NCBI GenBank assembly: GCA_964519405.1
Contig: CAZFLA010000001.1
Span: forward strand, 29,956 to 93,955
DNA: 64,000 nucleotides
Direction of reading: 5' to 3'
DNA from: an uncultured bacterium
GTDB taxonomy: Bacteria > Armatimonadota > HRBIN16
A program made the translations under genes and the position numbers. This document shows, piece by piece, positions 8,517 to 35,881 of the stretch (within the stretch, counting starts at the first letter, position 1; each line of letters begins with the position of its first letter). The notes under the pieces were generated by a model. It did no database searches. It saw only the letters and a list, made by a program, of their open reading frames with translations, and had not been told where the DNA came from.

Positions 8517-9176
8517 TTAGTAGTCGTTAACCGTTTGATCGGGGTCGGTACCAAAACCTTCGTTGGCTCGGTTGCCTTTTGGACGAACCTGGTTAGTGCG
8601 AGTATTAAATGTTGTGTTTCGTCGAGTCTGTACCCTTGTCGTTTTGACCTGGTTTCGACGCTGCATTTCAATTCGCCGTTTATCTTGCTCCGACATGGTG
8701 CCGGCACCCGTCCATGTTCCTGTCGCTGAAGTATCGGAAGTGGGGCTAACACCTGGCCTGGTTATGCCGGGACGCACAGTTTGAGTACCTTGCATACTAC
8801 CCTGGCCTTTAGAGCTGAAGCCGGAAGAGCTTTCACCTCCACTACCTGGTGATTTCGGTGACATCATTGATGGAGACATCTCTTTGCCCATACCAGGAGG
8901 TGTTACCATAGTTGGCCCCGCACTCTGTTTGCTTTGAGACACGGCGAATATGATAATCGCAATCACGGCCACCACGAGCAACCCGATAGCTACTGGCAGT
9001 GGAACCTTGCTTAAAGCAGACTCACCGCTCTGAGAGGAAGCTCCAGATGCGGATCCACCAGAGCCCTTCTTTTTGCCGTTTTTTCGTTGTTCCTCTAGTT
9101 GCTTAAGGTCACTTTGTATGGAATCCCAGTCCAGCGAATCGTTCTGGGAATCATTGAGATTTTTGTTGTCTGCCAT
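8517..9176 (-). CDS. Single-pass membrane protein with S/G/T-rich low-complexity regions. The start was moved to MADNKNL, which has an AGGAA RBS.
   Basis: TM helix VPLPVAIGLLVVAVIAIIIFAV. G/S-rich regions on both sides. Basic C-terminus. No recognisable domain. Confidence 0.55.
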   Translation of the reverse strand: MADNKNLNDSQNDSLDWDSIQSDLKQLEEQRKNGKKKGSGGSASGASSQSGESALSKVPLPVAIGLLVVAVIAIIIFAVSQSKQSAGPTMVTPPGMGKEMSPSMMSPKSPGSGGESSSGFSSKGQGSMQGTQTVRPGITRPGVSPTSDTSATGTWTGAGTMSEQDKRRIEMQRRNQVKTTRVQTRRNTTFNTRTNQVRPKGNRANEGFGTDPDQTVNDY

Positions 9177-9344
9177 GATGTTCCTGCTTTCGCGAATCAA
9201 TTGCTCGCTTTATCGTTAAGGCGAGTAAAAAGTATGCTGCCTAACTTATGGTATGGGATATACAGATTTGATGCAAGCCGTAAACCCTCACATACCATAA
9301 CGAACTAAGGCGCAACGATGCCTATGGTGTTGATCCCATGTTCA

Positions 9345-10025
9345 TCACATCTTTATCCAGAAGTGATGTCCATTCGCACTGGCAGGGCATTTTCCACCCA
9401 CCGATGCGTCTGGAGAAGCACTCGTTTGCACCCAGTTAATGCCTTCACCGCAGTTGCTGCAGCGGTAGAAACCGGCATAGCCGTTTTGAGAATTCGGCGT
9501 GTTTTGTTTGCTCTGGGTTTGAAGTTGTTCTATAAGCAGCCGCTGTGTGGCGATGAGCTGACGTTGATCTTCCAACTGTTGTCGATACTGCGCCAATTGA
9601 CCTTCGTAAGTGTCTCGCATGGTCTGCATCTGCAGCTTCAGCGATGTATCGGTGTCCTCTTGATCGTCTACACTGTCGCGGGTGTTGAATGGGCGTTGTT
9701 CCGTTGGAATGGTGGGGTGTGCTTCTGTGTTTCTATTTTGCCAATCTGTATTGCCAGTGATGCGTGTGACACCTTGGTTCCTCGAAGCTGCATAGCTTTC
9801 ATCGGTAGGTGTGGTATTGGTTGTTTGGTAGCTGTTTGTGAAACTGCCATAAGCAGCAGCCGATTTTGCTTTTCTATTGTGAGCTGCCCACATGATGATG
9901 CACGCGACTAACAGAAACGCTACCGCCATGATAGCGATGAATATACGCATCTGGCGTAATCGGTTGGTGCTTTTATCTACCCTGTCATCCATTGAGATGA
10001 TTGGCCATGGGTCTTGATCGCTCAC
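9345..10025 (-). CDS. Single-pass membrane protein with a Q-rich coiled coil and a C-terminal Cys4 zinc-ribbon-like motif. GTG start with an AAAGGAAGG RBS.
   Basis: TM helix IFIAIMAVAFLLVACIIMWAA, QLEDQRQLIATQRLLIEQLQ coiled coil, CSNCGEG...GGKCP cysteines. The opposite-strand ORF 9318..9911 is Cys-rich junk and is rejected. Confidence 0.55.
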   Translation of the reverse strand: MSDQDPWPIISMDDRVDKSTNRLRQMRIFIAIMAVAFLLVACIIMWAAHNRKAKSAAAYGSFTNSYQTTNTTPTDESYAASRNQGVTRITGNTDWQNRNTEAHPTIPTEQRPFNTRDSVDDQEDTDTSLKLQMQTMRDTYEGQLAQYRQQLEDQRQLIATQRLLIEQLQTQSKQNTPNSQNGYAGFYRCSNCGEGINWVQTSASPDASVGGKCPASANGHHFWIKM

Positions 10026-15963: not shown

Positions 15964-16412
15964 TAATCGACACGATAGATAACATCACTATTCTGCGCAG
16001 CTTAAGTGCGAGATTTGACCAGGCTGTGGACTGGATTTTAAACACCGATTATGCAGCCTTGGAGCCTGGACGCCACGAGATAGACGGTCAAAACCTATAT
16101 GTGAATGTGCAGCAGAATGCTACTATCTGTGATGGCGGCAGATGGGAAGCGCATCGCAAGTATGCCGACATACAAATTGTGGTTTCAGGCTGCGAGTGCA
16201 TGGGTTATACTGCTGTTCGCGGCTTGGTGACGAATCAACCATACGACGGCACAAAGGATATCGAATTCTTTGCGGGTGATGCTGCAAATCTGTGCTTAGT
16301 CAATTCGGGCATGTTCGCAGTCTTCTTTCCGCAGGATGCGCATATGCCCAACATCGCAGTGAACAACCAGTCGGAAGTCGATAAGAAACTCATCGTCAAA
16401 GTGCTTCTATAG
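15960..16412 (+). CDS. YhcH/YjgK/YiaL (DUF386) family protein
   Basis: 150 aa; conserved H..Y.DIQ and G.E. pattern of the family. ATGA overlap with the upstream GT4 gene. Confidence 0.55.
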   Translation: MIIDTIDNITILRSLSARFDQAVDWILNTDYAALEPGRHEIDGQNLYVNVQQNATICDGGRWEAHRKYADIQIVVSGCECMGYTAVRGLVTNQPYDGTKDIEFFAGDAANLCLVNSGMFAVFFPQDAHMPNIAVNNQSEVDKKLIVKVLL

Positions 16413-16428
16413 AAAAATCGACATATAC

Positions 16429-16472
16429 GAAAAAGCCCTCAGTTTGGAGTTGCTCCAAACTGAGGGCTTTTT
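16429..16472. terminator. Bidirectional rho-independent terminator between convergent genes
   Basis: Perfect 15-bp stem GCCCTCAGTTTGGAG / CTCCAAACTGAGGGC with an A-run upstream and TTTTT downstream. Confidence 0.75.
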
Positions 16473-16489: not shown

Positions 16490-16990
16490 CTACATGCGGG
16501 CCAGCAGCCAACGCTTGCTGAGCTCATCGAGTTCTTTGGTACATCGAATGTCATACCGAGTGCCCTCAATGTCCATGATGGTGACATACCCAGGGCGCGG
16601 TTGTTTGACGCTGTCGTTGAAGTGCCGCACCCGGAACACCACCGGGCCTCTGTCTGTTTCCACATGCCACTCAGTGATATCGACGCGCTCACGCTTTGCC
16701 ATATCCACAATGCTGTGTATGGCAGATATCTGCGGTGTGACATACTGGGCATGCATTGCCTTCTTAAGCGCCGCCAACGGTTCGGGCTTCAGCCCTTCCA
16801 TGCTCTCAAGGAAAGCTACTTCCTTCTGCTCATGGTTGAGCAGCGAGATGAAGTGCTCAGGATCAGTCAATGGAAAAGATGAAGCCGGGCTGACTGGTAT
16901 CCATTCCTCTGAATCCTGTGGCAGGAACATCAGACGGTTGTTTTCATATTTAAGCTGCACATCGGCAGGCTTTACAGCAGGATCTAACAT
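16490..16990 (-). CDS. Small conserved hypothetical protein co-transcribed downstream of the ABC exporter (possibly DUF1854-like)
   Basis: 166 aa, no TM. Sits 51 bp downstream of the ABC gene on the same strand. The family assignment comes from memory and is unverified. Confidence 0.45.
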   Translation of the reverse strand: MLDPAVKPADVQLKYENNRLMFLPQDSEEWIPVSPASSFPLTDPEHFISLLNHEQKEVAFLESMEGLKPEPLAALKKAMHAQYVTPQISAIHSIVDMAKRERVDITEWHVETDRGPVVFRVRHFNDSVKQPRPGYVTIMDIEGTRYDIRCTKELDELSKRWLLARM

Positions 16991-17041
16991 ATATTCACAG
17001 CCTTTCTTGCCAGATACATTGGTTTGTTGGCAATGAGCTCA

Positions 17042-19309
17042 CTACCTAGCTACTCCGCGCACGCGTGATATCTCTTGATACATCTTGACCAGTTTCGCGA
17101 ATTCGCCATCTTCTTTATCTTGCAGTTCCGTATGACTGCCAACCTCAGCCACCTCGCCCTGTTTCAACACGATCAGCCTGTCGGCATTCTTCAAAGTGCT
17201 CAGCCGGTGTGCAATAGCGAAGGTGGTTCGCCCCTTGACTAACCGGTCGATGGCTTCTTGTATCTGCTTTTCTGTTTCGATATCGACTTGGCTAGTGGCT
17301 TCATCGAGGATGAGTATCTTTGGGTTGTGCAGAACAGCTCGTGCGATTGCGATCCGCTGTTTTTCACCACCCGAAAGGCCTTGTCCGCCTTCACCAAGCA
17401 GCGTTTCGTAGCCGTCTGGACGGCGGATGATAAACTCATGCGCATTCGCTACGCGTGCGGCACTCACGATCTCTTCGCGGGTGGCATCGGGTTTTGCATA
17501 TGCGATGTTATCCGCGATGGTGCCTGCAAATAGGAAAGTGTCTTGCGGCACCAAGCCGATCTGCTTGCGTATCTCTTCAAGCTTCAGGTCTTTGATGTCT
17601 ACACCGTCAATGGTGATAGAGCCTTCGATGCAGTCGTAGAACCGGCAGAGCAGGTTAATTACCGTGCTCTTACCTGCGCCTGAGTGACCAACTAGCCCAA
17701 TCATCTCGCCGGGCTCCACCTTGAAGCTGACGTCCTTCAACACGTTTCGGTGCGGTTCGTATCCGAATGTGACGCCATGGAACTCTACTGTGCCCACGAT
17801 GTTCGGCAGTGCTTGTGCTTTGTCTGACTCTTTGACCTCTGGCTCCGTATCAAGAACCTCAAAGATGCGTTCGGCAGCGGTCATAGCGCGGCTGCTCCAG
17901 TTAAGCAGTGAGCTTAATGAACCGACTGGCTGGTAGAACATACCGACGAATGTAATGAACGCCATTAAAGTTCCTAAACTCATCTTCTCATCAAGAACTT
18001 CGCGCCCGCCGAAATACCAAACCAGCATAGTGCCCAGCATCATTAGCAGCGATATACCGCTGAACAGGAACGCCCAACTTCGGTCAACTGTCACAGCGCT
18101 TGTGGCGACATCAATGCTGGCTTTATCGAACCGCTCTATGGCTCGCTTTTCCTGAGCGAAGGCTTTGACGACACGCAACCCGTTGAGCCCTTCGGTCAAC
18201 ACGTTGTTGAGGGTGCTCCATCGCCGCCACATCCGGCGGAAGTTAATGCGCATCCGCATCCAGATAGCCTGTGCGAGTGCCGTCACGATAGGGGTAGGCA
18301 ACACCACGATGAGTGCGAGCTTCCAGCTCATGGCAAAGAGCATGGCGCCAATACCCACTACTTGCAGCAAGTTGATGACTAGGTCTTGCGCACCCCATAT
18401 CAAAAACTGCTGCAGGTTGTTTGTGTCTTGGTTGACACGAGATATGACCGAGCCGATCTGGCGCTTATCGAAAAATCCCAGCGAAAGATACTGCAGATGC
18501 TTATATAGTTTTGTGCGGATGTCGTGAGTGATGCGGTTGCCAACCCAGGCGCTGAGCCAGCTCTGGAATGCACTCACGAGTGCACCTACCACCCTTACCG
18601 CGATTAATGCCAGTGTTAACCACAACAACATCTTTAGGCGATCAGCTTTACTGATGTCTATCTTAGGGGCTAACGCGCTGTCCATTAACGGCTTTTGAAG
18701 GTATGGCGGAATTAGCCCGATGATTGTACCCAACATCGCCATGCCCGTCAGCCCCAATGCCTGCCACTTGATGGGCTTCATGAACGACACAAGCCTGTTG
18801 ATGGTCTGGAATCCTGGTCGGCACAACTGGCACACGGAAGTGCCTCGCTCTAGCAGCAGTCCGCACTTCGGGCAGTATTTACGGTCGTCTTCGGGAACTA
18901 AAGCCTCTTCACCCTTATGCCACTTCTCCAACAGGCCGGCAACTGAGGCGAATCGACCTATCTCGCGAGAAGTGTATCGAACCAGCTCAATGACGCAGTC
19001 ATCGCGTTTAGCTGTAAGGCGGCCTCCGCCAACCAGGCTTTCCGTTTTGAACTCCGAGAGCTCAGCGAAGGGGATGTCAAGCCGTAATACCGATCGACTA
19101 AGCTCTCGCGAATACACTAAGAGTTGTTCATCGGTAACGATCAGAAGTTCCTCGCCTAATTCACCGGTGGACAACATGTCCGCGACGATGACGAGACGTG
19201 GTTCACTTGACAGCGAGATATCATCGGGAAGTGGAGGTGTTACCAAAATCCATACCTCTTCTCTGAATATAATATGCGTGTATGTTATTCTACACGAGTT
19301 GGTAGGCAA
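17042..19309 (-). CDS. Fused ABC exporter (TMD plus NBD, MsbA-like type I) with an extra N-terminal bPH-like domain and a CxxC...CxxC zinc ribbon. The true start is probably about 20 codons downstream of the ORF start.
   Basis: Walker A GHSGAGKST, signature LSGGEKQRIAIARA, Walker B ILILDEATS. Six TM helices. N-terminal about 170 aa contain YCPKCG...CQLCRPG. Confidence 0.85.
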   Translation of the reverse strand: MPTNSCRITYTHIIFREEVWILVTPPLPDDISLSSEPRLVIVADMLSTGELGEELLIVTDEQLLVYSRELSRSVLRLDIPFAELSEFKTESLVGGGRLTAKRDDCVIELVRYTSREIGRFASVAGLLEKWHKGEEALVPEDDRKYCPKCGLLLERGTSVCQLCRPGFQTINRLVSFMKPIKWQALGLTGMAMLGTIIGLIPPYLQKPLMDSALAPKIDISKADRLKMLLWLTLALIAVRVVGALVSAFQSWLSAWVGNRITHDIRTKLYKHLQYLSLGFFDKRQIGSVISRVNQDTNNLQQFLIWGAQDLVINLLQVVGIGAMLFAMSWKLALIVVLPTPIVTALAQAIWMRMRINFRRMWRRWSTLNNVLTEGLNGLRVVKAFAQEKRAIERFDKASIDVATSAVTVDRSWAFLFSGISLLMMLGTMLVWYFGGREVLDEKMSLGTLMAFITFVGMFYQPVGSLSSLLNWSSRAMTAAERIFEVLDTEPEVKESDKAQALPNIVGTVEFHGVTFGYEPHRNVLKDVSFKVEPGEMIGLVGHSGAGKSTVINLLCRFYDCIEGSITIDGVDIKDLKLEEIRKQIGLVPQDTFLFAGTIADNIAYAKPDATREEIVSAARVANAHEFIIRRPDGYETLLGEGGQGLSGGEKQRIAIARAVLHNPKILILDEATSQVDIETEKQIQEAIDRLVKGRTTFAIAHRLSTLKNADRLIVLKQGEVAEVGSHTELQDKEDGEFAKLVKMYQEISRVRGVAR

Positions 19310-19427
19310 GTGCAGTGCACATCGAGATATTTGTATGTAATAGGTGCCGTTCTGATTTTAGTCTGACCTATACTGTTGTCGGTTGTGAACTAATCTGTTG
19401 GTTGCTTTGACGATTAAGGGTTGTGAT

Positions 19428-20639
19428 TTATACAGTGAATTCACGGACAGACGGTACCGCTCCATACCTGCCTGCCATGTATGCTTTTCGAAAGTTTTGT
19501 TCTACTCGTGCTTTGCTGCCCCAAAGGGGGTGAATGGTTGTTTGCTGCTGTGTGTCTTTCTCAGTAAACCATATCTGATCACGCCGGAAGAGATCACCAT
19601 CAAGCAAGGAGCAGTCGTGTGTTGTGAAGACAAACTGGAATGGTGCCGAGGCTTGCTGGTGCACTAGCTTAACCATGGCTCGCGTGAGCATGGGATGCAA
19701 ACTAGAATCTAGCTCATCACAAAACAGCACATTGCCATGGAAGATAGATTGAATGAAGGGGCCAGCAAGTGCAAATAGACGCTGTGTGCCATCGGATTCA
19801 TCATGCTGCAGGTCGAACTCCACGCTGTGTCCGCCGTTCTGCAACAGGTGAAGTGTCTTCACGCGGTAACCATCACGTGCGGATGTGTCTTTGATACATC
19901 GGATGCTATGGATGCCAAGGTCAGCTTCACGCATGATAGTGCCGACCTGCTCATGTATACAGTCGTCATTTAAGCACAAATCTGCCGTGATGCCGATATC
20001 AGGGCGCACATCCGAGTGATTAATCATCGTGCAGTATCTATTCAGAAACCAGTCATATACCGTCCCAGCAAGATCATGGTTGTTTTGCGCATATTTCGCC
20101 AGATAGAGCTGGTTGTCCAAAGTGTTGTCGGCAATTTTGTCATTCCGAGGCTTCCAATATTCGCCGAACTTGCTGTCATATCCGCTGTCAGACCGCCGAT
20201 GGCGCTCAAACAGCAGCCGTGGAGAGATTCGCTGTCCCGCCATACTCGCCTCATACAGCCATTCATCGGCGATCGCTAGTTGTGTCGCACTGAATCCGTA
20301 GGTGTATTTCACACCATCTGTGATGAAAGTTACTTCAAACTGCGTGGGGGCTGCTTGGTCGGATTCGTCCAGCATAAATGGGGTGACGTCAATATGTTGT
20401 CCGCGCTGCATGTCGTGCGATGACAGGATAATCTGGCGCATCAGCCCCAGCGCCTTGATGATGTTTGATTTACCAGACGCATTTGGCCCATATATCACCG
20501 CAGACTTGAGCAGCCGGAGCTTTCCGCTAGGGTCTAAGAAAGTGTTCTCCAGATAGTTGTCGTCTGGTGATGCCACAAGACTTAGCGTGACCTTGCTGCG
20601 CAATGATCGGTAGTTTGAGACATTGAATTCAACTAGCAT
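19428..20639 (-). CDS. AAA_21/ABC-type ATPase (SMC/RecF-like P-loop ATPase of the kind found in abortive-infection systems). Start moved to MLVEFNVSNY.
   Basis: N-terminus FNVSNYRSL...IYGPNASGKSNIIKAL Walker A. C-terminus SDGTQRLFAL...LFCDELDSSLHP (signature / Walker B / D-loop) ...FTTHD (H-loop). Confidence 0.75.
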   Translation of the reverse strand: MLVEFNVSNYRSLRSKVTLSLVASPDDNYLENTFLDPSGKLRLLKSAVIYGPNASGKSNIIKALGLMRQIILSSHDMQRGQHIDVTPFMLDESDQAAPTQFEVTFITDGVKYTYGFSATQLAIADEWLYEASMAGQRISPRLLFERHRRSDSGYDSKFGEYWKPRNDKIADNTLDNQLYLAKYAQNNHDLAGTVYDWFLNRYCTMINHSDVRPDIGITADLCLNDDCIHEQVGTIMREADLGIHSIRCIKDTSARDGYRVKTLHLLQNGGHSVEFDLQHDESDGTQRLFALAGPFIQSIFHGNVLFCDELDSSLHPMLTRAMVKLVHQQASAPFQFVFTTHDCSLLDGDLFRRDQIWFTEKDTQQQTTIHPLWGSKARVEQNFRKAYMAGRYGAVPSVREFTV

Positions 20640-20909
20640 TTCTGTCTGCCTTAGCAAATCGAGAATTACATCGGTGAAAAATCCGTGTATGCAGATATTA
20701 TAAACAGCAATATTGCATAAAATCAACACAAATACCAGTTATTAACGACAATATTGTGAAAATAACTGAAATACTATGTTGACGAAACTCAAAACTGTAT
20801 GTTGAGCCAGTATGTGGTGCGAGTGGTTATAAAGTATTGATGTAGGATATATCGCATTCCTTGTATAAATATCATGCAGCAGACATCTTTATTGATACAA
20901 GAGGCTAAC

Positions 20910-22823
20910 ATGAAGCGTTCACCTGCGTTTGGGTTTAGTTATCGTGCCATCATACTCGGTTTACTGCTTATCATCCCCAATGTCTTCTGGACCATATACG
21001 GCGAGGTTATCTCGCAAACTGACCTCAATTCCACGTCATTAATGATGCCTCCATTGTGCACACTGCTGCTGTTGATTGTGTGTAATGGCCTAGTTAAGCG
21101 GGTGAAACCTGGCAAGGAACTCACGCCGAGCGAGATGATGTGTGTATACATCCTCATCACAATTGCCACGGTTTTAGCGGGAATGGGTATGCTGCAGTTT
21201 ATCGTCACCACACTGCCAGCAGGATACCATTACGGAATTAGCTCTACAGATATCGCAAATGTCACAAAAAGCATCCCCGCTTGGGCTATGCCGAGTGCCG
21301 AAGTGACGGAGAAGTTTTACCGAGGAAACAGCGCAGTGCCATGGAAAGCATGGTTGGGACCTTTGAGCTTTTGGGGCTGCTTTTTGCTGGTGATGGTGTG
21401 GACGATGTATTGCGTTAACGCCATGTTCCGCAAACAGTGGATGGACCGTGAGCGCTTGACCTATCCTATAGTTCAGCTGCCCATAGAGATGATTGATCCG
21501 CAGTCAGGTTTCTTTCGAAACAAGCTGATGTGGGCAGGATTTCTAGTGCCCGTCATTCTAGAAAGCATGAACAGCCTGAATACATTGTTTCCGAACATCC
21601 CGTATCTGCAACTGCGCGCATACAGTTTAAGCTCATTTTTTACGGAGAAACCATGGAATGCGATGGGGGCGCTGCAGTCCACTTTCTATCCACTAGCGAT
21701 AGGTTTGGGCTACCTGCTGCCTGCGGATGTTAGTTTTAGCTGCTCATTTTTCTATATCCTCACGCGTTTGGAAAATGTAGCCACTAACGCATTTGGATTG
21801 AACTCTGGACCAGGAACTAGCGGGCAGTGGCCGTATCTCGCAGGGCAAGGAGTAGGCGGGTTCATCGGCTTAGCCTTGATGACGATCTGGATAGCTAGGC
21901 ATCACCTTGCCGATGTCTGGCAAGGTGCAGTGCATCCAGACAAAGCTGATGATGCCGATGAACCGATGAGTTATCGTGCTGCTTGTATCGGGCTGTTGGT
22001 CGGTTTTGCAGCCATGATGGGCTTCGGTTTGGTGTTCAAGATATCGCCGATAGTATTTGGTGTGTACCTCATCATATACTTGGCCTTTTCGCTGACCATT
22101 GCGCGGCTGCGTGCTGAAGCCGGTCCCGCATGGACGATGGGACCGATGTTGTCTGCTGTTAATGTAACTCACAATACACTTGGCACCATAAACATATCCA
22201 CGCAAGACATGCACAAAATGGCTATGTTTACCTGGTTTTCCGTAGAGATGCGGTGCTGCCCAATGCCAGTGAGTGCGGAAGCTATCAAGATGCAGCATCG
22301 TCCCGGTAAAGGTCGCTCGATACTCAGTGGGATGATTATGTTGGCGTCAGCCGTTGGTATTATCACCGGGTTCATTGCGTTGCTAACGGTGTATTATCAA
22401 ACCGGAGCGGCAAGCAGTAAGGTGGATGTCTGGCGCACGGCCATGGGGTTGAATCCGTATCAAACGGCTTCTGCGGCGGCACTCAATCCGAAGAATCCAG
22501 ATTGGTCGCAGATAGGCGCTGCCGGGTTTGGCACCTTGGTGACTATTGGCTTAAGTGCGGCTAGAACCGCGTTTGTGTGGTGGCCGCTGCATCCAGCCGG
22601 ATATGTGCTTGGCAATACCAGCACGATGGATTGGTTATGGCTGCCGTTTCTCATTGCGTGGGTATTTAAGGTAAGCTTTTTAAAGGTGGGCGGAGTGAAA
22701 AGCTATCGAAATGCTCTACCGTTCTTCATGGGGTTGATAGTAGGTGACTACGTCACGAGCGCATTGTGGTCGTTGCTCGGAAGCCTACTGAGAACACCTA
22801 TGTATCGGTGCTTCCCGTGTTAG
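20910..22823 (+). CDS. Large polytopic membrane protein of unknown family (about 12 or more TM helices). Start moved to MKRSPAFGF, which has an AAGAGG RBS.
   Basis: Hydrophobic segments throughout. No recognisable transporter signature. Confidence 0.55.
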   Translation: MKRSPAFGFSYRAIILGLLLIIPNVFWTIYGEVISQTDLNSTSLMMPPLCTLLLLIVCNGLVKRVKPGKELTPSEMMCVYILITIATVLAGMGMLQFIVTTLPAGYHYGISSTDIANVTKSIPAWAMPSAEVTEKFYRGNSAVPWKAWLGPLSFWGCFLLVMVWTMYCVNAMFRKQWMDRERLTYPIVQLPIEMIDPQSGFFRNKLMWAGFLVPVILESMNSLNTLFPNIPYLQLRAYSLSSFFTEKPWNAMGALQSTFYPLAIGLGYLLPADVSFSCSFFYILTRLENVATNAFGLNSGPGTSGQWPYLAGQGVGGFIGLALMTIWIARHHLADVWQGAVHPDKADDADEPMSYRAACIGLLVGFAAMMGFGLVFKISPIVFGVYLIIYLAFSLTIARLRAEAGPAWTMGPMLSAVNVTHNTLGTINISTQDMHKMAMFTWFSVEMRCCPMPVSAEAIKMQHRPGKGRSILSGMIMLASAVGIITGFIALLTVYYQTGAASSKVDVWRTAMGLNPYQTASAAALNPKNPDWSQIGAAGFGTLVTIGLSAARTAFVWWPLHPAGYVLGNTSTMDWLWLPFLIAWVFKVSFLKVGGVKSYRNALPFFMGLIVGDYVTSALWSLLGSLLRTPMYRCFPC

Positions 22824-24621: not shown

Positions 24622-24660
24622 CAGTGGTAAACGAAATCACCACTGTGTGACATTTTTTTG
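24622..24660 (+). terminator. Rho-independent terminator after the URO-D-like gene
   Basis: CAGTGGT-loop-ACCACTG stem followed by TTTTTTT. Confidence 0.7.
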
Positions 24661-24675
24661 ATATGGAGAAGATCA

Positions 24676-25614
24676 GTGAGATCAAAGAAGAGTAAACTGA
24701 TTATTTCTGCTGCGATTGTGCTCGCTTTGGTTTATGTGATCGCATGGGCCGACTGTGTTTTTACGAATACTATAGCCAACTACCCAGTGATCGGTCGATC
24801 TGACCTGAAATCCGTGCTTTCTGGTGATGCTTATTACCAGCTTGACAAGGTTGTGAACCTTAGGACGCAAAAGAGTTGGAAAGTCACTGGCAGGGTTCTG
24901 ATATGGGATGCTAGACATAACAAACCCCTCGCAGCTTGGCTGCCAGGCAACGAGGGTGCGTGTGACACTGTGACGCTTTATGACGCAGATGGTAAGCCTT
25001 GGTATATCAAAAACACGGCATATGGTAGCTTGTTTCGAACCAGGTGGTACTGCGATTCCCATAGACGCTTCTTTCTACATGAAATAACTGATCAGCAATA
25101 CGATGACGATATCACTAGCATGGTGGCTGTGTATGATACGGAACCTCGATCTGTTAAGCATATGTTTATACCAAAATATACTGCAGCACCTGCTGACGGG
25201 GAAGGAGGTTTCTGGGTATACACCGGTAAGGGATTGGCTGTATGGAGCGCACTCACTAATACCATGACCGATATGGTCCCGATAGAACCATCGGTGGTAC
25301 GGAGCGGCCATCGTAAGTTCGGCATCTCACCGGACGGTCGAAAAGCTGTGATCATGCGTGAGAAACGCGGGTTGCCCTTTCACTTGGTGGGTCGAGGTTT
25401 TGATGTCATTGATATCAAGACCAATCATCGAAAAACTATATGGATATCGAGCTTTGGCGTTTGGTGGGATACCTTTAAAGTCGGTTTCGTCGACAATGAC
25501 CATTTATACGTTAATGCGTATTCTACAGACTACCTAGTGCGTATCCGTGACAACAAAGTTTGGTGTATCAGCGATTACCCGTTCAAGCTGTTGCCTGCGA
25601 TATATCATGAATAG
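24676..25614 (+). CDS. Membrane-anchored hypothetical protein (N-terminal TM, probably extracytoplasmic beta-rich domain). Putative GTG start with a GGAGAAGA RBS.
   Basis: TM helix LIISAAIVLALVYVIAW. W/Y-rich beta-like C-terminal region. No known domain recognised. Confidence 0.45.
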   Translation: MRSKKSKLIISAAIVLALVYVIAWADCVFTNTIANYPVIGRSDLKSVLSGDAYYQLDKVVNLRTQKSWKVTGRVLIWDARHNKPLAAWLPGNEGACDTVTLYDADGKPWYIKNTAYGSLFRTRWYCDSHRRFFLHEITDQQYDDDITSMVAVYDTEPRSVKHMFIPKYTAAPADGEGGFWVYTGKGLAVWSALTNTMTDMVPIEPSVVRSGHRKFGISPDGRKAVIMREKRGLPFHLVGRGFDVIDIKTNHRKTIWISSFGVWWDTFKVGFVDNDHLYVNAYSTDYLVRIRDNKVWCISDYPFKLLPAIYHE

Positions 25615-26599: not shown

Positions 26600-26639
26600 A
26601 GTGGGGTATCATTTATGCAGGAGAGTGCATAAACGAGAG

Positions 26640-27206
26640 ATGGCGAACGCGATATATACTATAGGTCACAGCAACCACCCAATAGAACATTTCTACGCTT
26701 TACTGGGGCAGCATCACATACATACATTGGTTGATGTTCGCACATCACCATATAGCCAGTATGCTGCATGGTTTAATAAAGAAGAGCTTAGTGACGGTAT
26801 AAAGAAACTGGGCTTACAGTATTATTATGCGGGCAAGCATCTTGGCGGTCGCCCGACAGGATCGGTGTTTTACGATAAGAATGGTTATGCACTGTATGAT
26901 GTGATGGCTGCAGATAAGCAGTTCATTAAAGCGTTGTCTCAGCTGCGCCATTTAGCCGCAATTTCATCACCGTTGGTGATCATGTGCAGTGAAGAAAATC
27001 CACGACTATGTCATCGAGGCTTGTTAATATCGCGTGTTCTTGATCAACAAGGTGTTGATGTGCAGCACATTATGGGTGACGGCAGTGTACAACCTCATCG
27101 TACTCTCTTTACCCATCAACTGTCGCTGATAGACGGAGAAGATGAGTGGAAGTCTATACGATCGGTTTTACAACCAAGTCCGCAAGAGAGTTCTTCAACA
27201 CAATAA
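26640..27206 (+). CDS. DUF488-family protein, paralog 1. Start at MANAIYTIGHSNH.
   Basis: N-terminal IYTIGHSN...LVDVR motif and the later GG/CHR elements of DUF488 (YeaO-like). The 3' end overlaps the next ORF by about 61 nt. Confidence 0.7.
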   Translation: MANAIYTIGHSNHPIEHFYALLGQHHIHTLVDVRTSPYSQYAAWFNKEELSDGIKKLGLQYYYAGKHLGGRPTGSVFYDKNGYALYDVMAADKQFIKALSQLRHLAAISSPLVIMCSEENPRLCHRGLLISRVLDQQGVDVQHIMGDGSVQPHRTLFTHQLSLIDGEDEWKSIRSVLQPSPQESSSTQ

Positions 27207-27586
27207 AGACTGCGGGTATCAAAAGACTTCTTGATATTCGTCTGAATAACAAATCCCAGCTAGCAGGATTCACGAAATGCCAGGACTTAAGCTATTTTCT
27301 GGAGCATATCTGTGGATGCCGCTATGAGCACGATGTTGATCTAGCTCCTACAGCCTCAATCCTTGCCGCCTACCGGAAAGACCACTGTTGGGTAAATTAT
27401 GAAATTGCTTTTCAACAGTTGTTGATGGCTAGAGACAAACAGCTTCAGATAAAGTATTCCGCTGAGTATTTTAAAATTCCGACTGTGTTATTATGCAGCG
27501 AACCTACGCCTGATCACTGTCATAGAAGGTTAGTGGCTGAGTATTTACACAACCTATACAGCGATCTGCATGTCGTTCATCTCTAA
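27146..27586 (+). CDS. DUF488-family protein, paralog 2
   Basis: MEVYTIGFTTKS...LLDIR...LAP...LLCSEPTPDHCHRRLVAEYL matches the DUF488 consensus. Confidence 0.7.
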   Translation: MEVYTIGFTTKSAREFFNTIKTAGIKRLLDIRLNNKSQLAGFTKCQDLSYFLEHICGCRYEHDVDLAPTASILAAYRKDHCWVNYEIAFQQLLMARDKQLQIKYSAEYFKIPTVLLCSEPTPDHCHRRLVAEYLHNLYSDLHVVHL

Positions 27587-27600
27587 TCGGGTGACTATGA

Positions 27601-28224
27601 ATGAGTCGCATTGTGCTTTTAGCCAACTCAAGAAAGTGGAATGCTCGTTGTTTGGCTGGTATCGATCAGGTGACTGGCCGATGGATTAGGCCTGTTAGCT
27701 CACTTGTGGGTATATGTCATAGCTGGCCAGCGAATCTCATTAACGATATCGATGTTTTCGATGTGATTGAATACAAATCCAGCGTTCCTCAACCGCTAAA
27801 TTACCATCCCGAAGATGAACTGCTTCTTGATCAGCCAAAACGGGTAGCACGGTTGAGCGACGATGAGATACAGGCGATGTGTGGAAAACTCAATGCGAGT
27901 GATGTCCATGAATTCATAGCAGATCGAGTTGCTATCGCCGAAGAGGAACTATCGGAGCGTGCACTGACATGCAGCTTGGCGGCATGTGTATGTAACGAGG
28001 TCTGTGTATATCAGGCTCAGCACCATGACAACATGCGATGTTGGTTCATGCTTGGAAATAGGAAGTATGAATTGCCATGCACTGATGACTATAGTATAGC
28101 TTCGGAAACCATGACCGTCGGTGATGTCCTGCATGGCCGTTTTCTTGTTTGCTTGAGCGTAGGGGAACCATATCGTGGGTATCACTATAAACTTGTTGCG
28201 ACATTACGACGTCTGCCTGAATAA
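27601..28224 (+). CDS. Hypothetical protein (207 aa), third gene of the DUF488 cassette
   Basis: Gap of 15 nt from paralog 2 on the same strand. Cys-containing. No recognisable domain. Confidence 0.5.
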   Translation: MSRIVLLANSRKWNARCLAGIDQVTGRWIRPVSSLVGICHSWPANLINDIDVFDVIEYKSSVPQPLNYHPEDELLLDQPKRVARLSDDEIQAMCGKLNASDVHEFIADRVAIAEEELSERALTCSLAACVCNEVCVYQAQHHDNMRCWFMLGNRKYELPCTDDYSIASETMTVGDVLHGRFLVCLSVGEPYRGYHYKLVATLRRLPE

Positions 28225-33559: not shown

Positions 33560-35881
33560 TTAGTCTTTCTGCTCTATCGAGTAGATGCACACCGACTTTA
33601 ACTGCACGGTGCCTGCGCCTGGCAACTGTATGCGCAGGGCGTGAATACGGTCTGCCGCTTTCCATGGCATGGTGAAGCAGAGTTTTGTTTGAGTGTTGGG
33701 GAACCTCAACTGACGCCACACCATATTGTCATAACTGCTGCCATCAACACTCCAGCGCAGCGGGAACTGCTTGATGGGGTTTTCAGAACGCATGTTTATT
33801 TCCACGAAGTAGAGTTTGTTCTTGTCAACCACTACATTCGACACAGGCAGATCGATATATGGGTCGTCACCGGTTGTGCGGAACTCGGCAACACCCTTAT
33901 TGCTCTTCGTATATTCCATGTTGTGCAGCATATTGGGTGACGCTTTCAGATTGCTGATGTCTTGCGCCCATAGTCGCTGAGATGCTGAATGTGTTTTGCC
34001 GTTAATCAGCTTACAGGTTAGATCATTTAGTGGCGCCATATCTTTAGCTAACCATGCCGACTCGGAGGCGTTCATGCTGCCAATGATCTTACTGGCTTTG
34101 TTGATCGCGGCTTGCCGTGATGTAGCCTGATCGGTGCTGCTGGCTTTCAGAACACATTCGGCAAGATCATCCCATGTCGACAGCGGCAGCGGCTCAACCA
34201 GCGTCGCCATGATCTCCTTGCGCGGCATGACCTTGAGCTTCCCATCTTTCTTAGCCTGTTCGACGATGGCCAATAGGTCTGATATCTTCGCACTGCAGTA
34301 TCCCGAACCACCATATACGCAGCCCTCACCGGAATACCATATCTTCACTTCGTCGCCAGATATCACAGCCGAACAAGCCCTTACACCAAGATCGCCCCAT
34401 GTGCCCCAGTCCGACCATGTCACGATGGGGTCGCTGTGGTTGAACGGCGGCTCTGTGGTGTTGATGTCGTCGTATTTCACCCAGTTGATGCCGTCAAGTG
34501 AAAAAGCCCAGCCAAGTCTTTTTACGCCAGCTACAAATTCGTCATTGGTGATGTGACCGTGATAGAAGCAATGGTAACTGGCACCCGATTTACCTTGGTA
34601 AATACGGGTTTGAGTTTCATTGTCACCGAGCTTGAGCATAGCTGCTGCCGATAGCCATCCGCTGTCCCAGTCGCCTGGCTCACCCTGAGTGATGACCGGG
34701 TTCAACGTAGACTTCTTCCAGTGGACACAGTCTTTGCTTTCGGCATAACCGAACTCGTTGCGGTAACCGCGTGATGGGTCGTTAATGCCGGTGAACCACA
34801 TCTTCCAGATATTACCGTCTTTGATGAACGAGTGGTCGCCGATGCAGATATCATCCCACGCGCCAAAGGGGCCTTGGTAGAGCAGGGGATTGTCTGGCTC
34901 TGGGGTCCAATGAATACCATCATTACTGCGATGCATACCCATGCCATCCCACCAGTTGGCATTGCAGGTAGATCCCGCGGGATGCCACATGATGTATTCG
35001 TCACCGTATTTCAATGTGTCGGCATCGGCTTCGTTGAAGTCACCCCATTGGCCTTTTGCTCCCAGAGGTTTCACTGCGCCGGTGCCTGCGGGTTGTGTCC
35101 AGGTGATGCCATCTTTTGATTCCGCATACCCTTGACCCGCGCCGTTGGAATACCACATTTTGTATGTGTCACCATCGAGTATGACGGTTGGTGAGTAAGC
35201 GTCGATGTTCAACGGGTTGTGCGGATATACCGTAAATGGCGACTTCGAGCGAGTTGCTGTCCGCACAATGACATCGCTGAAGGAACCCGTGGCTGCGGCT
35301 GCATAGAACCCAACCATGCCGCAGGGGTGCTCTGCGATCTTCTTTTCTACCACATGTCCGATGTATTTTTCGTCAACATAGCAGTATATGCCGGCACGGT
35401 CGGTTATGACCTTCATCCGGTAAGGGTGGTCAAACTTCGCAGTGAATGGGAATGTGCCTAAGGTTGTGTACTGCAGATTTCGAACCGTCTCGATGGTCAG
35501 CTTTTTATTCGGAGCGTTGAAGCGCACCATGATAAAGTTGTCGTGAGTGTCACCGCGCACGGTCAATCCCAACCCCGCCCACGATTCCCCATTGTTGCCG
35601 GTCATGTTGATCGTGGCTTCGTAAATGCAGTCGATCCACTCGTGACCAGGAACAAATGCTCGCGCCCGTATGGCGTGAAGGTCGGTGGATGTGATGCTGT
35701 TCTGCCCTTCCTGCCAACTGCCCTCATTAATGATGAGGTTCTTGTAGACCGATCGTCCAGATATGCTGTCTGGGGTGGTATCAATGCGTGTGAGTTGATC
35801 GGTGCCCGCCGATGCCGATGTTGTTAATGCCATAATGATTACCCCTACTAAACTCTTGAAGAGAGATGCGGTTTGATTCAT
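33560..35881 (-). CDS. Secreted glycoside-hydrolase-like protein: concanavalin/LamG-like domain plus a five-bladed beta-propeller (GH43/GH32/GH130-like) plus a C-terminal beta-sandwich
   Basis: Signal peptide. Repeated blade motifs YKMWYS, YIMWH, WKMWFTG, KIWYSG. Family assignment is uncertain. Confidence 0.5.
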   Translation of the reverse strand: MNQTASLFKSLVGVIIMALTTSASAGTDQLTRIDTTPDSISGRSVYKNLIINEGSWQEGQNSITSTDLHAIRARAFVPGHEWIDCIYEATINMTGNNGESWAGLGLTVRGDTHDNFIMVRFNAPNKKLTIETVRNLQYTTLGTFPFTAKFDHPYRMKVITDRAGIYCYVDEKYIGHVVEKKIAEHPCGMVGFYAAAATGSFSDVIVRTATRSKSPFTVYPHNPLNIDAYSPTVILDGDTYKMWYSNGAGQGYAESKDGITWTQPAGTGAVKPLGAKGQWGDFNEADADTLKYGDEYIMWHPAGSTCNANWWDGMGMHRSNDGIHWTPEPDNPLLYQGPFGAWDDICIGDHSFIKDGNIWKMWFTGINDPSRGYRNEFGYAESKDCVHWKKSTLNPVITQGEPGDWDSGWLSAAAMLKLGDNETQTRIYQGKSGASYHCFYHGHITNDEFVAGVKRLGWAFSLDGINWVKYDDINTTEPPFNHSDPIVTWSDWGTWGDLGVRACSAVISGDEVKIWYSGEGCVYGGSGYCSAKISDLLAIVEQAKKDGKLKVMPRKEIMATLVEPLPLSTWDDLAECVLKASSTDQATSRQAAINKASKIIGSMNASESAWLAKDMAPLNDLTCKLINGKTHSASQRLWAQDISNLKASPNMLHNMEYTKSNKGVAEFRTTGDDPYIDLPVSNVVVDKNKLYFVEINMRSENPIKQFPLRWSVDGSSYDNMVWRQLRFPNTQTKLCFTMPWKAADRIHALRIQLPGAGTVQLKSVCIYSIEQKD

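Follow-up and report, generated by a model that had tools for sequence, protein, structure and literature searches.

AbiL/RloAB modules are two-gene anti-phage systems in which a Rad50/SMC-like ABC ATPase is paired with a small TOPRIM-like nuclease, RloB/AbiLii. AbiL, made up of AbiLi and AbiLii, comes from the Lactococcus plasmid pND861, and the RloA/RloB pair comes from Campylobacter. Going by the Pfam description of RloB, a deletion in abiLii reportedly abolished resistance. To our knowledge, PARIS is the sole split ATPase and TOPRIM system that has been solved mechanistically. In PARIS, the toxin is the nuclease AriB. It is sequestered by a hexamer of AriA, which serves as chaperone, sensor and antitoxin and lets it go on binding of a phage protein (PMC10802264, PMC11464382). 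AbiL and RloAB have been classed with PARIS among the ATPase and TOPRIM systems in reviews (PMC13064643); the mechanism of AbiL and RloAB has been noted as untested, and they look structurally distinct from PARIS (PMC13064643, PMC10802264).

The stretch of DNA analysed here, 64 kb in its full length and referred to below as the window, carries a gene for an ABC ATPase of this kind which stands alone. We consider it rather probable that this gene is the ATPase half of an AbiL/RloAB two-gene module whose nuclease gene was cleanly lost, the ATPase being left intact in a housekeeping stretch of the chromosome. It is an ordinary orphaned defence gene from a known family, found here in an incomplete arrangement; it does not constitute a new system.

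The maximal open reading frame of the gene, on the minus strand from 19428 to 20729, opens with a GTG at 20729 and would encode a 433-aa form. The earlier note had given this whole span as the gene; the frame does exist, but it is the maximal one, and the real start is most likely the ATG at 20639, giving a protein of 403 aa. This choice of start follows from the N-termini of the homologues, all of which read MLVEF or MLVQF in the alignment, from the public protein collection, where an identical 403-aa product from an NCBI contig of 94 kb is present and the 433-aa form is absent, and from a promoter-like site that falls inside the extension. Promoter-like calls in this study are consensus matches only, such sites being no commoner in the region than in shuffled sequence.

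19428 to 20639, minus strand: coding sequence of the solo ABC ATPase, placed in the AbiLi/RloA family; 403 aa, ATG at 20639, stop codon at 19428-19430
20640 to 20729, minus strand: in-frame upstream extension of the maximal open reading frame, probably untranslated, as homologues begin at the MLVEF methionine
20697 to 20726, minus strand: promoter-like TTGATT-18 nt-TATAAT with 10 of 12 consensus matches, about 58 bp upstream of the ATG at 20639

In the Pfam scan the protein covers the whole AAA_21 profile (E=1.3e-29, 104.7 bits; cutoff 27), and it matches, far more strongly, the PADLOC model for AbiLi (PDLC02335; E=2.9e-89, 297 bits, residues 1-401). That model gives 314 bits for P0003 and 330 for P0109, two relatives that do have a partner gene, and P0109 carries the name RloA from its source. 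The second-ranked PADLOC match was an AriA model, PDLC02980, at 98 bits, which appears to be a generic AAA_21-type model since it has the profile length of Pfam AAA_21 and hits the same residues; the other AriA model gave 43 bits. Only partial matches of 25-30 bits were obtained with the PtuA, Old and GajA-type PADLOC models. Among these, Old matched at residues 303-362 only (25 bits) and PtuA partially at 27-28 bits, and the NCBIfam PtuA profile reached 20.2 bits against a cutoff of 500. By these profile matches the window ATPase is specifically a member of the AbiLi/RloA family. The earlier note had placed it in the abortive-infection class with RloA-type proteins among several options, and the PADLOC search that it suggested narrows these to AbiLi/RloA.

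The catalytic motifs were located in an alignment of 51 members that includes the window protein.

20466 to 20489, minus strand: Walker A (P-loop) GPNASGKS, residues 51-58; Y50, G51, N53, A54, G56 and K57 invariant in the 51 members
19779 to 19799, minus strand: ABC signature ESDGTQR, residues 281-287; E281, S282, G284 and T285 invariant
19692 to 19727, minus strand: Walker B and D-loop LFCDELDSSLHP, residues 305-316; D308 and H315 invariant, E309, L310 and P316 at least 90% conserved
19614 to 19628, minus strand: H-loop FTTHD, residues 338-342; H341 invariant, F338, T340 and D342 at least 90% conserved

The ABC ATPase motif set is thus complete, the 42 invariant columns of the alignment covering the motifs, and the SMC/RecF-like motifs read from the DNA in the earlier note are all present and show no degeneration on alignment. 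The solo ATPase presumably still retains ATP binding and hydrolysis as well as oligomerisation. An AlphaFold model built with the 51-sequence alignment had a pLDDT of 89.9 and a pTM of 0.89. Its best Foldseek matches in the PDB were Rad50/SMC heads and PtuA (E down to 3e-11), with TM values of 0.40-0.48 for the PtuA structures 8eea, 8sux and 9l7p, and no AriA structure was among the 50 PDB matches listed. A sequence search of the PDB with the ATPase gave no match, and matches came from the fold search alone. From the model we are confident of a predicted ABC-head, Rad50/SMC-like fold.

Loci related to that of the window ATPase, 160 in number, were collected from genomes and metagenomes, together with the loci of its closest proteins, and an HMM was built from the ORFs lying directly downstream of the ATPase. 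An RloB/AbiLii (TOPRIM-like) ORF directly follows the ATPase in 155 of the 160 informative loci; four further loci end too early for the partner to be judged and stand outside the 160. In these relatives RloB starts no more than a few bases from the stop codon of the ATPase and usually overlaps it. The identity of the partner was checked on two examples, one of which matched Pfam RloB (E=1.8e-28) and both of which matched PADLOC AbiLii (E=1e-22 and 2e-27). Since RloB directly follows the ATPase in nearly all informative relatives, this family supplies the ATPase of the AbiL/RloAB pair, and the missing effector, for which the earlier note had listed HNH, TOPRIM or DUF4435, is narrowed to RloB/AbiLii.

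At the corresponding place in the window there is a spacer, which is bounded by the start of a same-strand ABC exporter. For the exporter, the most likely start is TTG 19246 (a 734-aa form, as in its orthologues) or ATG 19177 (the 711-aa NCBI call), which puts the spacer at 181-250 bp; the earlier note had the strand of the exporter right, and its gap of 118 bp rests on the maximal open reading frame.

19247 to 19427, minus strand: spacer at the usual place of RloB, without an RloB remnant by RloB HMM or tblastn
19382 to 19355, minus strand: weak promoter-like site in the spacer, from a consensus scan
19296 to 19277, minus strand: weak terminator-like hairpin in the spacer, from a consensus scan

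With every filter off, the RloB HMM gave a best E of 1.7 against a six-frame translation of the 64-kb window, and tblastn of three RloB proteins against the window returned noise only. Among the 33 ORFs across 353-36872 that were scanned with Pfam, there was no RloB, HNH, TOPRIM, DUF4435 or other candidate effector. A PF13707 gene does not immediately follow the window ATPase, so the two-gene organisation of AbiL/RloAB is absent here, in agreement with the earlier reading that no partner nuclease is adjacent. A small hidden partner, for which a search of the gap and flanks had been suggested, was also considered: ORFs of 20 aa or more were listed for the spacer and for the upstream intergenic region, and none was RloB-like. 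One ORF of 35 aa overlaps the ATPase stop, at the position where RloB usually starts, and it too is not RloB-like.

The solo arrangement is not confined to the window. Look-ups in protein clusters yielded three metagenome contigs of the same species (L001, L169 and L170), from three other samples, in which the ATPase is again directly followed by the exporter. They share 97-98% DNA identity with the window and are collinear with it, gap-free, over up to 5.3 kb. As the collinear solo locus is seen in four independent assemblies, that of the window included, the solo state is not an assembly artefact, and it appears to be common to the species-level population. A single metagenome scan with the window protein recovered relatives at no more than 41% identity. 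P0003 and P0007, the paired relatives nearest to the window ATPase, are about 52% identical to it and both have RloB; one of them has PglZ/BrxL and GmrSD genes as neighbours, within a BREX/GmrSD defence island. There are five other solo relatives, about 3% of the family, each lying among housekeeping genes, and a search for an alternative partner shared by these five found none. In one of them (L017) the gene after the ATPase encodes a UvrD-like helicase that carries ankyrin repeats.

The surroundings of the window gene were examined as a possible defence island, and this was rejected: the neighbours are GH9, CdaA/YbbR, GT4, DUF386, HPPK, URO-D-like, RuvAB, HisG and glycoside hydrolase genes, and the wider context is one of housekeeping and carbohydrate metabolism. 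The divergent neighbour, which the earlier note had called a giant membrane protein, is indeed a divergent membrane protein, but at 649 aa it is not giant, and Pfam assigns it to DUF6785/DUF6784. The GC content of the ATPase gene (0.498) is that of the window (0.501), whereas a paired relative, L003, has a GC of 0.40 in a background of 0.52. Since its GC has ameliorated to the genome value, the window ATPase is not a recent arrival but a long-term resident. A search for mobile-element borders found no meaningful direct or inverted repeats flanking the gene, and no GC anomaly.

The ATPase gene appears not to be degenerate, and no sign of decay was found. No frameshift, stop or motif loss was found in any of the four alleles. 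All invariant columns of the family are retained, and of the 100 columns conserved at 90% or more the protein departs from seven, a number inside the range of the family (mean 3.7, SD 3.4, maximum 15), mostly by conservative changes (R→K, L→M, L→I, S→A, E→Q, D→G). Comparison with L001 gave 24 synonymous and 15 non-synonymous changes (dN/dS 0.17; binomial p=2e-7 against neutrality), a signal of purifying selection that comes almost wholly from one recombinant tract at nt 402-796; against L169 the dN/dS was 0.21. The constraint is comparatively loose, the dN/dS of about 0.2 being some 20-fold above the 0.011 of the adjacent ABC exporter. Of the alternatives left by the earlier note, an orphan or a degenerate defence gene, it is therefore the orphan that stands, the motifs and conserved columns being intact.

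19844 to 20238, minus strand: mosaic tract, residues 134-266, nt 402-796, with 38 of the 39 differences from L001
19887 to 19892, minus strand: K250/D251 junction in the variable linker from the ADLGI motif to the signature, a linker about 28 aa shorter than in the nearest paired relatives

Within the mosaic tract, pS is 0.26 and pN 0.048 against L001, with a dN/dS of 0.16. As L169 has only part of the tract, recombination among alleles is indicated, the tract being an import, and its record of constraint may partly predate the solo state. If the donor allele sat in a locus containing RloB, the selection signal would reflect that history and not constraint on a solo gene. The short linker was considered as a 28-aa deletion marking the loss of the partner, and this was rejected: within the family, the linker from ADLGI to the signature spans 33 to 77 aa, and RloB is still present next to members whose linker is no longer than 49 aa, so its length in the window is normal variation.

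How a solo ATPase might arise and persist can be proposed by analogy with PARIS. In the complete module, an oligomer of the ATPase would hold the nuclease inactive and free it when a phage trigger binds, which would make the ATPase the sensor or antitoxin-like part and the nuclease the toxic effector. Loss of the effector first would be harmless, and the reverse order harmful. If loss in this order is tolerated, as the analogy suggests, solo ATPases can arise and persist. The ATPase alone would be expected to give no abortive infection and to carry out neither killing nor cleavage of a target. Its continued constraint would speak for some residual use, speculatively as an orphan antitoxin-like or trigger-binding protein.

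An unlikely reading is that the gene is a non-functional leftover of no use to the cell, in which disabling mutations have yet to accumulate. The effector is gone, and the only known function of the family needs both genes; the looser constraint relative to the exporter and the excess of departures over the family mean would also suit a gene on its way out, and the few solo relatives, scattered among housekeeping genes, fit sporadic decay. Four intact alleles, on the other hand, and an excess of synonymous over non-synonymous changes argue against it, as does a GC fully ameliorated in a gene whose nearest paired relative is 52% identical, which indicates long residence of the gene without decay, with the partner lost at some point along that branch.

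It is also improbable, in our estimate, that the system is a split one, in which the ATPase acts in trans with a nuclease, RloB-type or other, whose gene lies elsewhere in the genome, and still serves abortive-infection defence. An ATPase kept intact and under constraint, and fixed across the species, is what one would expect of a working component. A contig from the same sample as L001, namely L003, bears a complete pair of RloA (48% identical) and RloB, and its tetranucleotide profile correlates with that of the window at r=0.82, within the range of 0.76-0.90 that the window's own chunks show against the rest. In composition, L003 ranks fourth of the fetched loci that are 2.5 kb or longer, after the three known same-species contigs. 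A composition match of a 4.8-kb contig is, however, weak evidence for the same genome, and with ATPases only 48% identical the RloB of L003 is more likely to be matched to its own ATPase. The adjacency of ATPase and RloB in the relatives, often with an overlap of a few bases, further implies tight co-expression and stoichiometry, which an arrangement in trans would lose, and there is no partner within the 64-kb window.

We regard it as quite improbable that the solo ATPase is actively maintained for a function of its own that needs no nuclease in cis. It could then serve as an orphan antitoxin or decoy against RloB toxins carried on mobile elements, or as a sponge for phage trigger proteins; alternatively, it could be a sensor whose signal now goes to an effector of another kind. 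Under such a function, the recombining variable insert (residues 134-266) would be a specificity-determining surface.

Recruitment of the ATPase into the operon of the ABC exporter and DUF1854, or to the DUF6785 membrane protein, in a housekeeping transport role can be dismissed as very improbable: the gene does precede the exporter by 181-250 bp in the same orientation, the two are not separated by a strong terminator, and the arrangement is conserved within the species, but the exporter already has a nucleotide-binding domain of its own, the relatives of the ATPase sit with RloB and not with transporters, and orthologous pairs of exporter and DUF1854 occur without an AAA_21 ATPase. The pair, with DUF1854 downstream of the exporter, is of the cyanophycin-associated type. 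In a related organism (L086) the exporter orthologue is 91% identical in amino acids and 76% in DNA, and its synteny with the window breaks exactly upstream of the exporter; L167 and L168 are more distant. All three keep DUF1854, and the genes upstream are unrelated. Judged from these orthologous loci, the ATPase is outside the exporter/DUF1854 operon. The earlier suggestion that the ATPase had been recruited to a different role finds no support in the one candidate that could be tested, and its orthologues are not part of an exporter operon.

Loss of the nuclease from an AbiL/RloAB module, which we take as the best explanation, makes the locus a clean, population-confirmed case in which a toxic effector has been lost from a defence module and the ATPase half persists under constraint; its importance is modest. 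Loss in this direction agrees with the toxin-antitoxin-like logic that has been put forward for ATPase and TOPRIM systems such as PARIS. For annotation, lone AAA_21/AbiLi matches should not be counted as defence systems, and PADLOC or DefenseFinder rules that demand both genes would rightly skip the window locus. Should the orphan prove to have an independent role, it could help to separate sensing from killing in AbiL/RloAB.

Compared with the known systems, the window ATPase is closest to AbiL/RloAB, with which it shares the ABC/Rad50-like ATPase architecture with a variable insert, along with the AbiLi profile. It differs from them in having no AbiLii/RloB, in the shorter linker, and in its place among housekeeping genes and not on a plasmid, in an R-M locus or in a defence island. 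With Septu and the retron-associated PtuA (an ABC ATPase with the HNH protein PtuB) it shares the SMC-head-like ATPase fold found by Foldseek, but its sequence matches to PtuA are weak and partial and there is no HNH partner nearby. Unlike Gabija GajA/OLD, it has no TOPRIM fused at its C-terminus, the chain ending right after the ATPase domain in the family-typical GRYGAVP...EFTV. It resembles orphan antitoxins and other solo components in that the non-toxic half would have been kept after loss of the toxic effector, an arrangement seen in the same small fraction of the family that is solo, the antitoxin-like role of AbiLi/RloA ATPases being drawn from PARIS only. With PARIS itself, in which the ABC ATPase AriA is paired with the DUF4435/TOPRIM nuclease AriB, the AbiL/RloAB class shares the logic of a split ABC ATPase and TOPRIM system. 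The window protein differs in its far lower scores on the AriA profiles than on AbiLi, and the 33 ORFs scanned with Pfam included no AriB/DUF4435. PARIS is nevertheless the best available model for the role of the ATPase half and for its survival alone.

Differences between the window and contigs of the same species were observed to be bunched in tracts, for example:

19844-20238, difference tract in the middle of the ATPase gene
21035-21066, short difference tract of 32 bp within the DUF6785 gene
17042-19177, difference tract in the ABC exporter gene

For the exporter, pS was 0.10, as against about 0 in the adjoining DUF1854 gene. This clustering indicates that homologous recombination is frequent in this population.

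The genes flanking the ATPase are as follows:

16490-19246 (-), ABC exporter and DUF1854
20874-22823 (+), divergent from the ATPase gene, full-length polytopic membrane protein with DUF6785 and DUF6784 (E=1.7e-141 and 4.7e-33)

The exporter carries an N-terminal extension of ~170 aa, which contains a zinc-ribbon-like CPKCG...CQLC, and scored 666 bits, under the cutoff of 880, against the NCBIfam model 'cyanophycin metabolism-associated ABC transporter'. In all the orthologous loci examined (L086, L167 and L168 from other organisms, and L169 from the same species), DUF1854 is next after the exporter. DUF1854, which ends at 16490, is convergent with DUF386, ending at 16412, and between them lies a 43-bp palindromic segment (16430-16472). 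The segment is kept in the same-species contigs L169 and L170, and is probably a bidirectional terminator.

Elsewhere in the window, the genes for DUF488 and for DuOB, a 'dual OB-containing domain', were found near each other (26601-28224, +) with an ORF between them, and this cluster could be a small functional module. Several sizeable ORFs of the window had no Pfam match at E<=0.001.

26601-27206 (+), DUF488 gene
27146-27586, 146-aa ORF
27601-28224 (+), DuOB gene
33560-35881 (-), 773-aa ORF with no Pfam match
24658-25614 (+), 318-aa ORF with no Pfam match
8517-10025, ORFs of about 200-230 aa with no Pfam match

A complete RloA paralogue (P0009, 48% identical) together with RloB was observed at 3289-4846 of L003, a contig from the same sample as the same-species contig L001, and also on L004. 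On L003 the pair has a GC content of 0.40 vs 0.52 for the background, and the whole-contig tetranucleotide profile is close to that of the window (r=0.82). The pair may represent a second locus, acquired recently, either in the organism of the window or in a related one.

Among the five other solo members of the family, one (L017, 2048-6677) has, 188 bp downstream of it, the gene of a UvrD-like helicase of 1031 aa that also contains ankyrin repeats. This helicase could be an alternative partner of the solo ATPase, an arrangement which recalls the Class 1 OLD and UvrD pairs.
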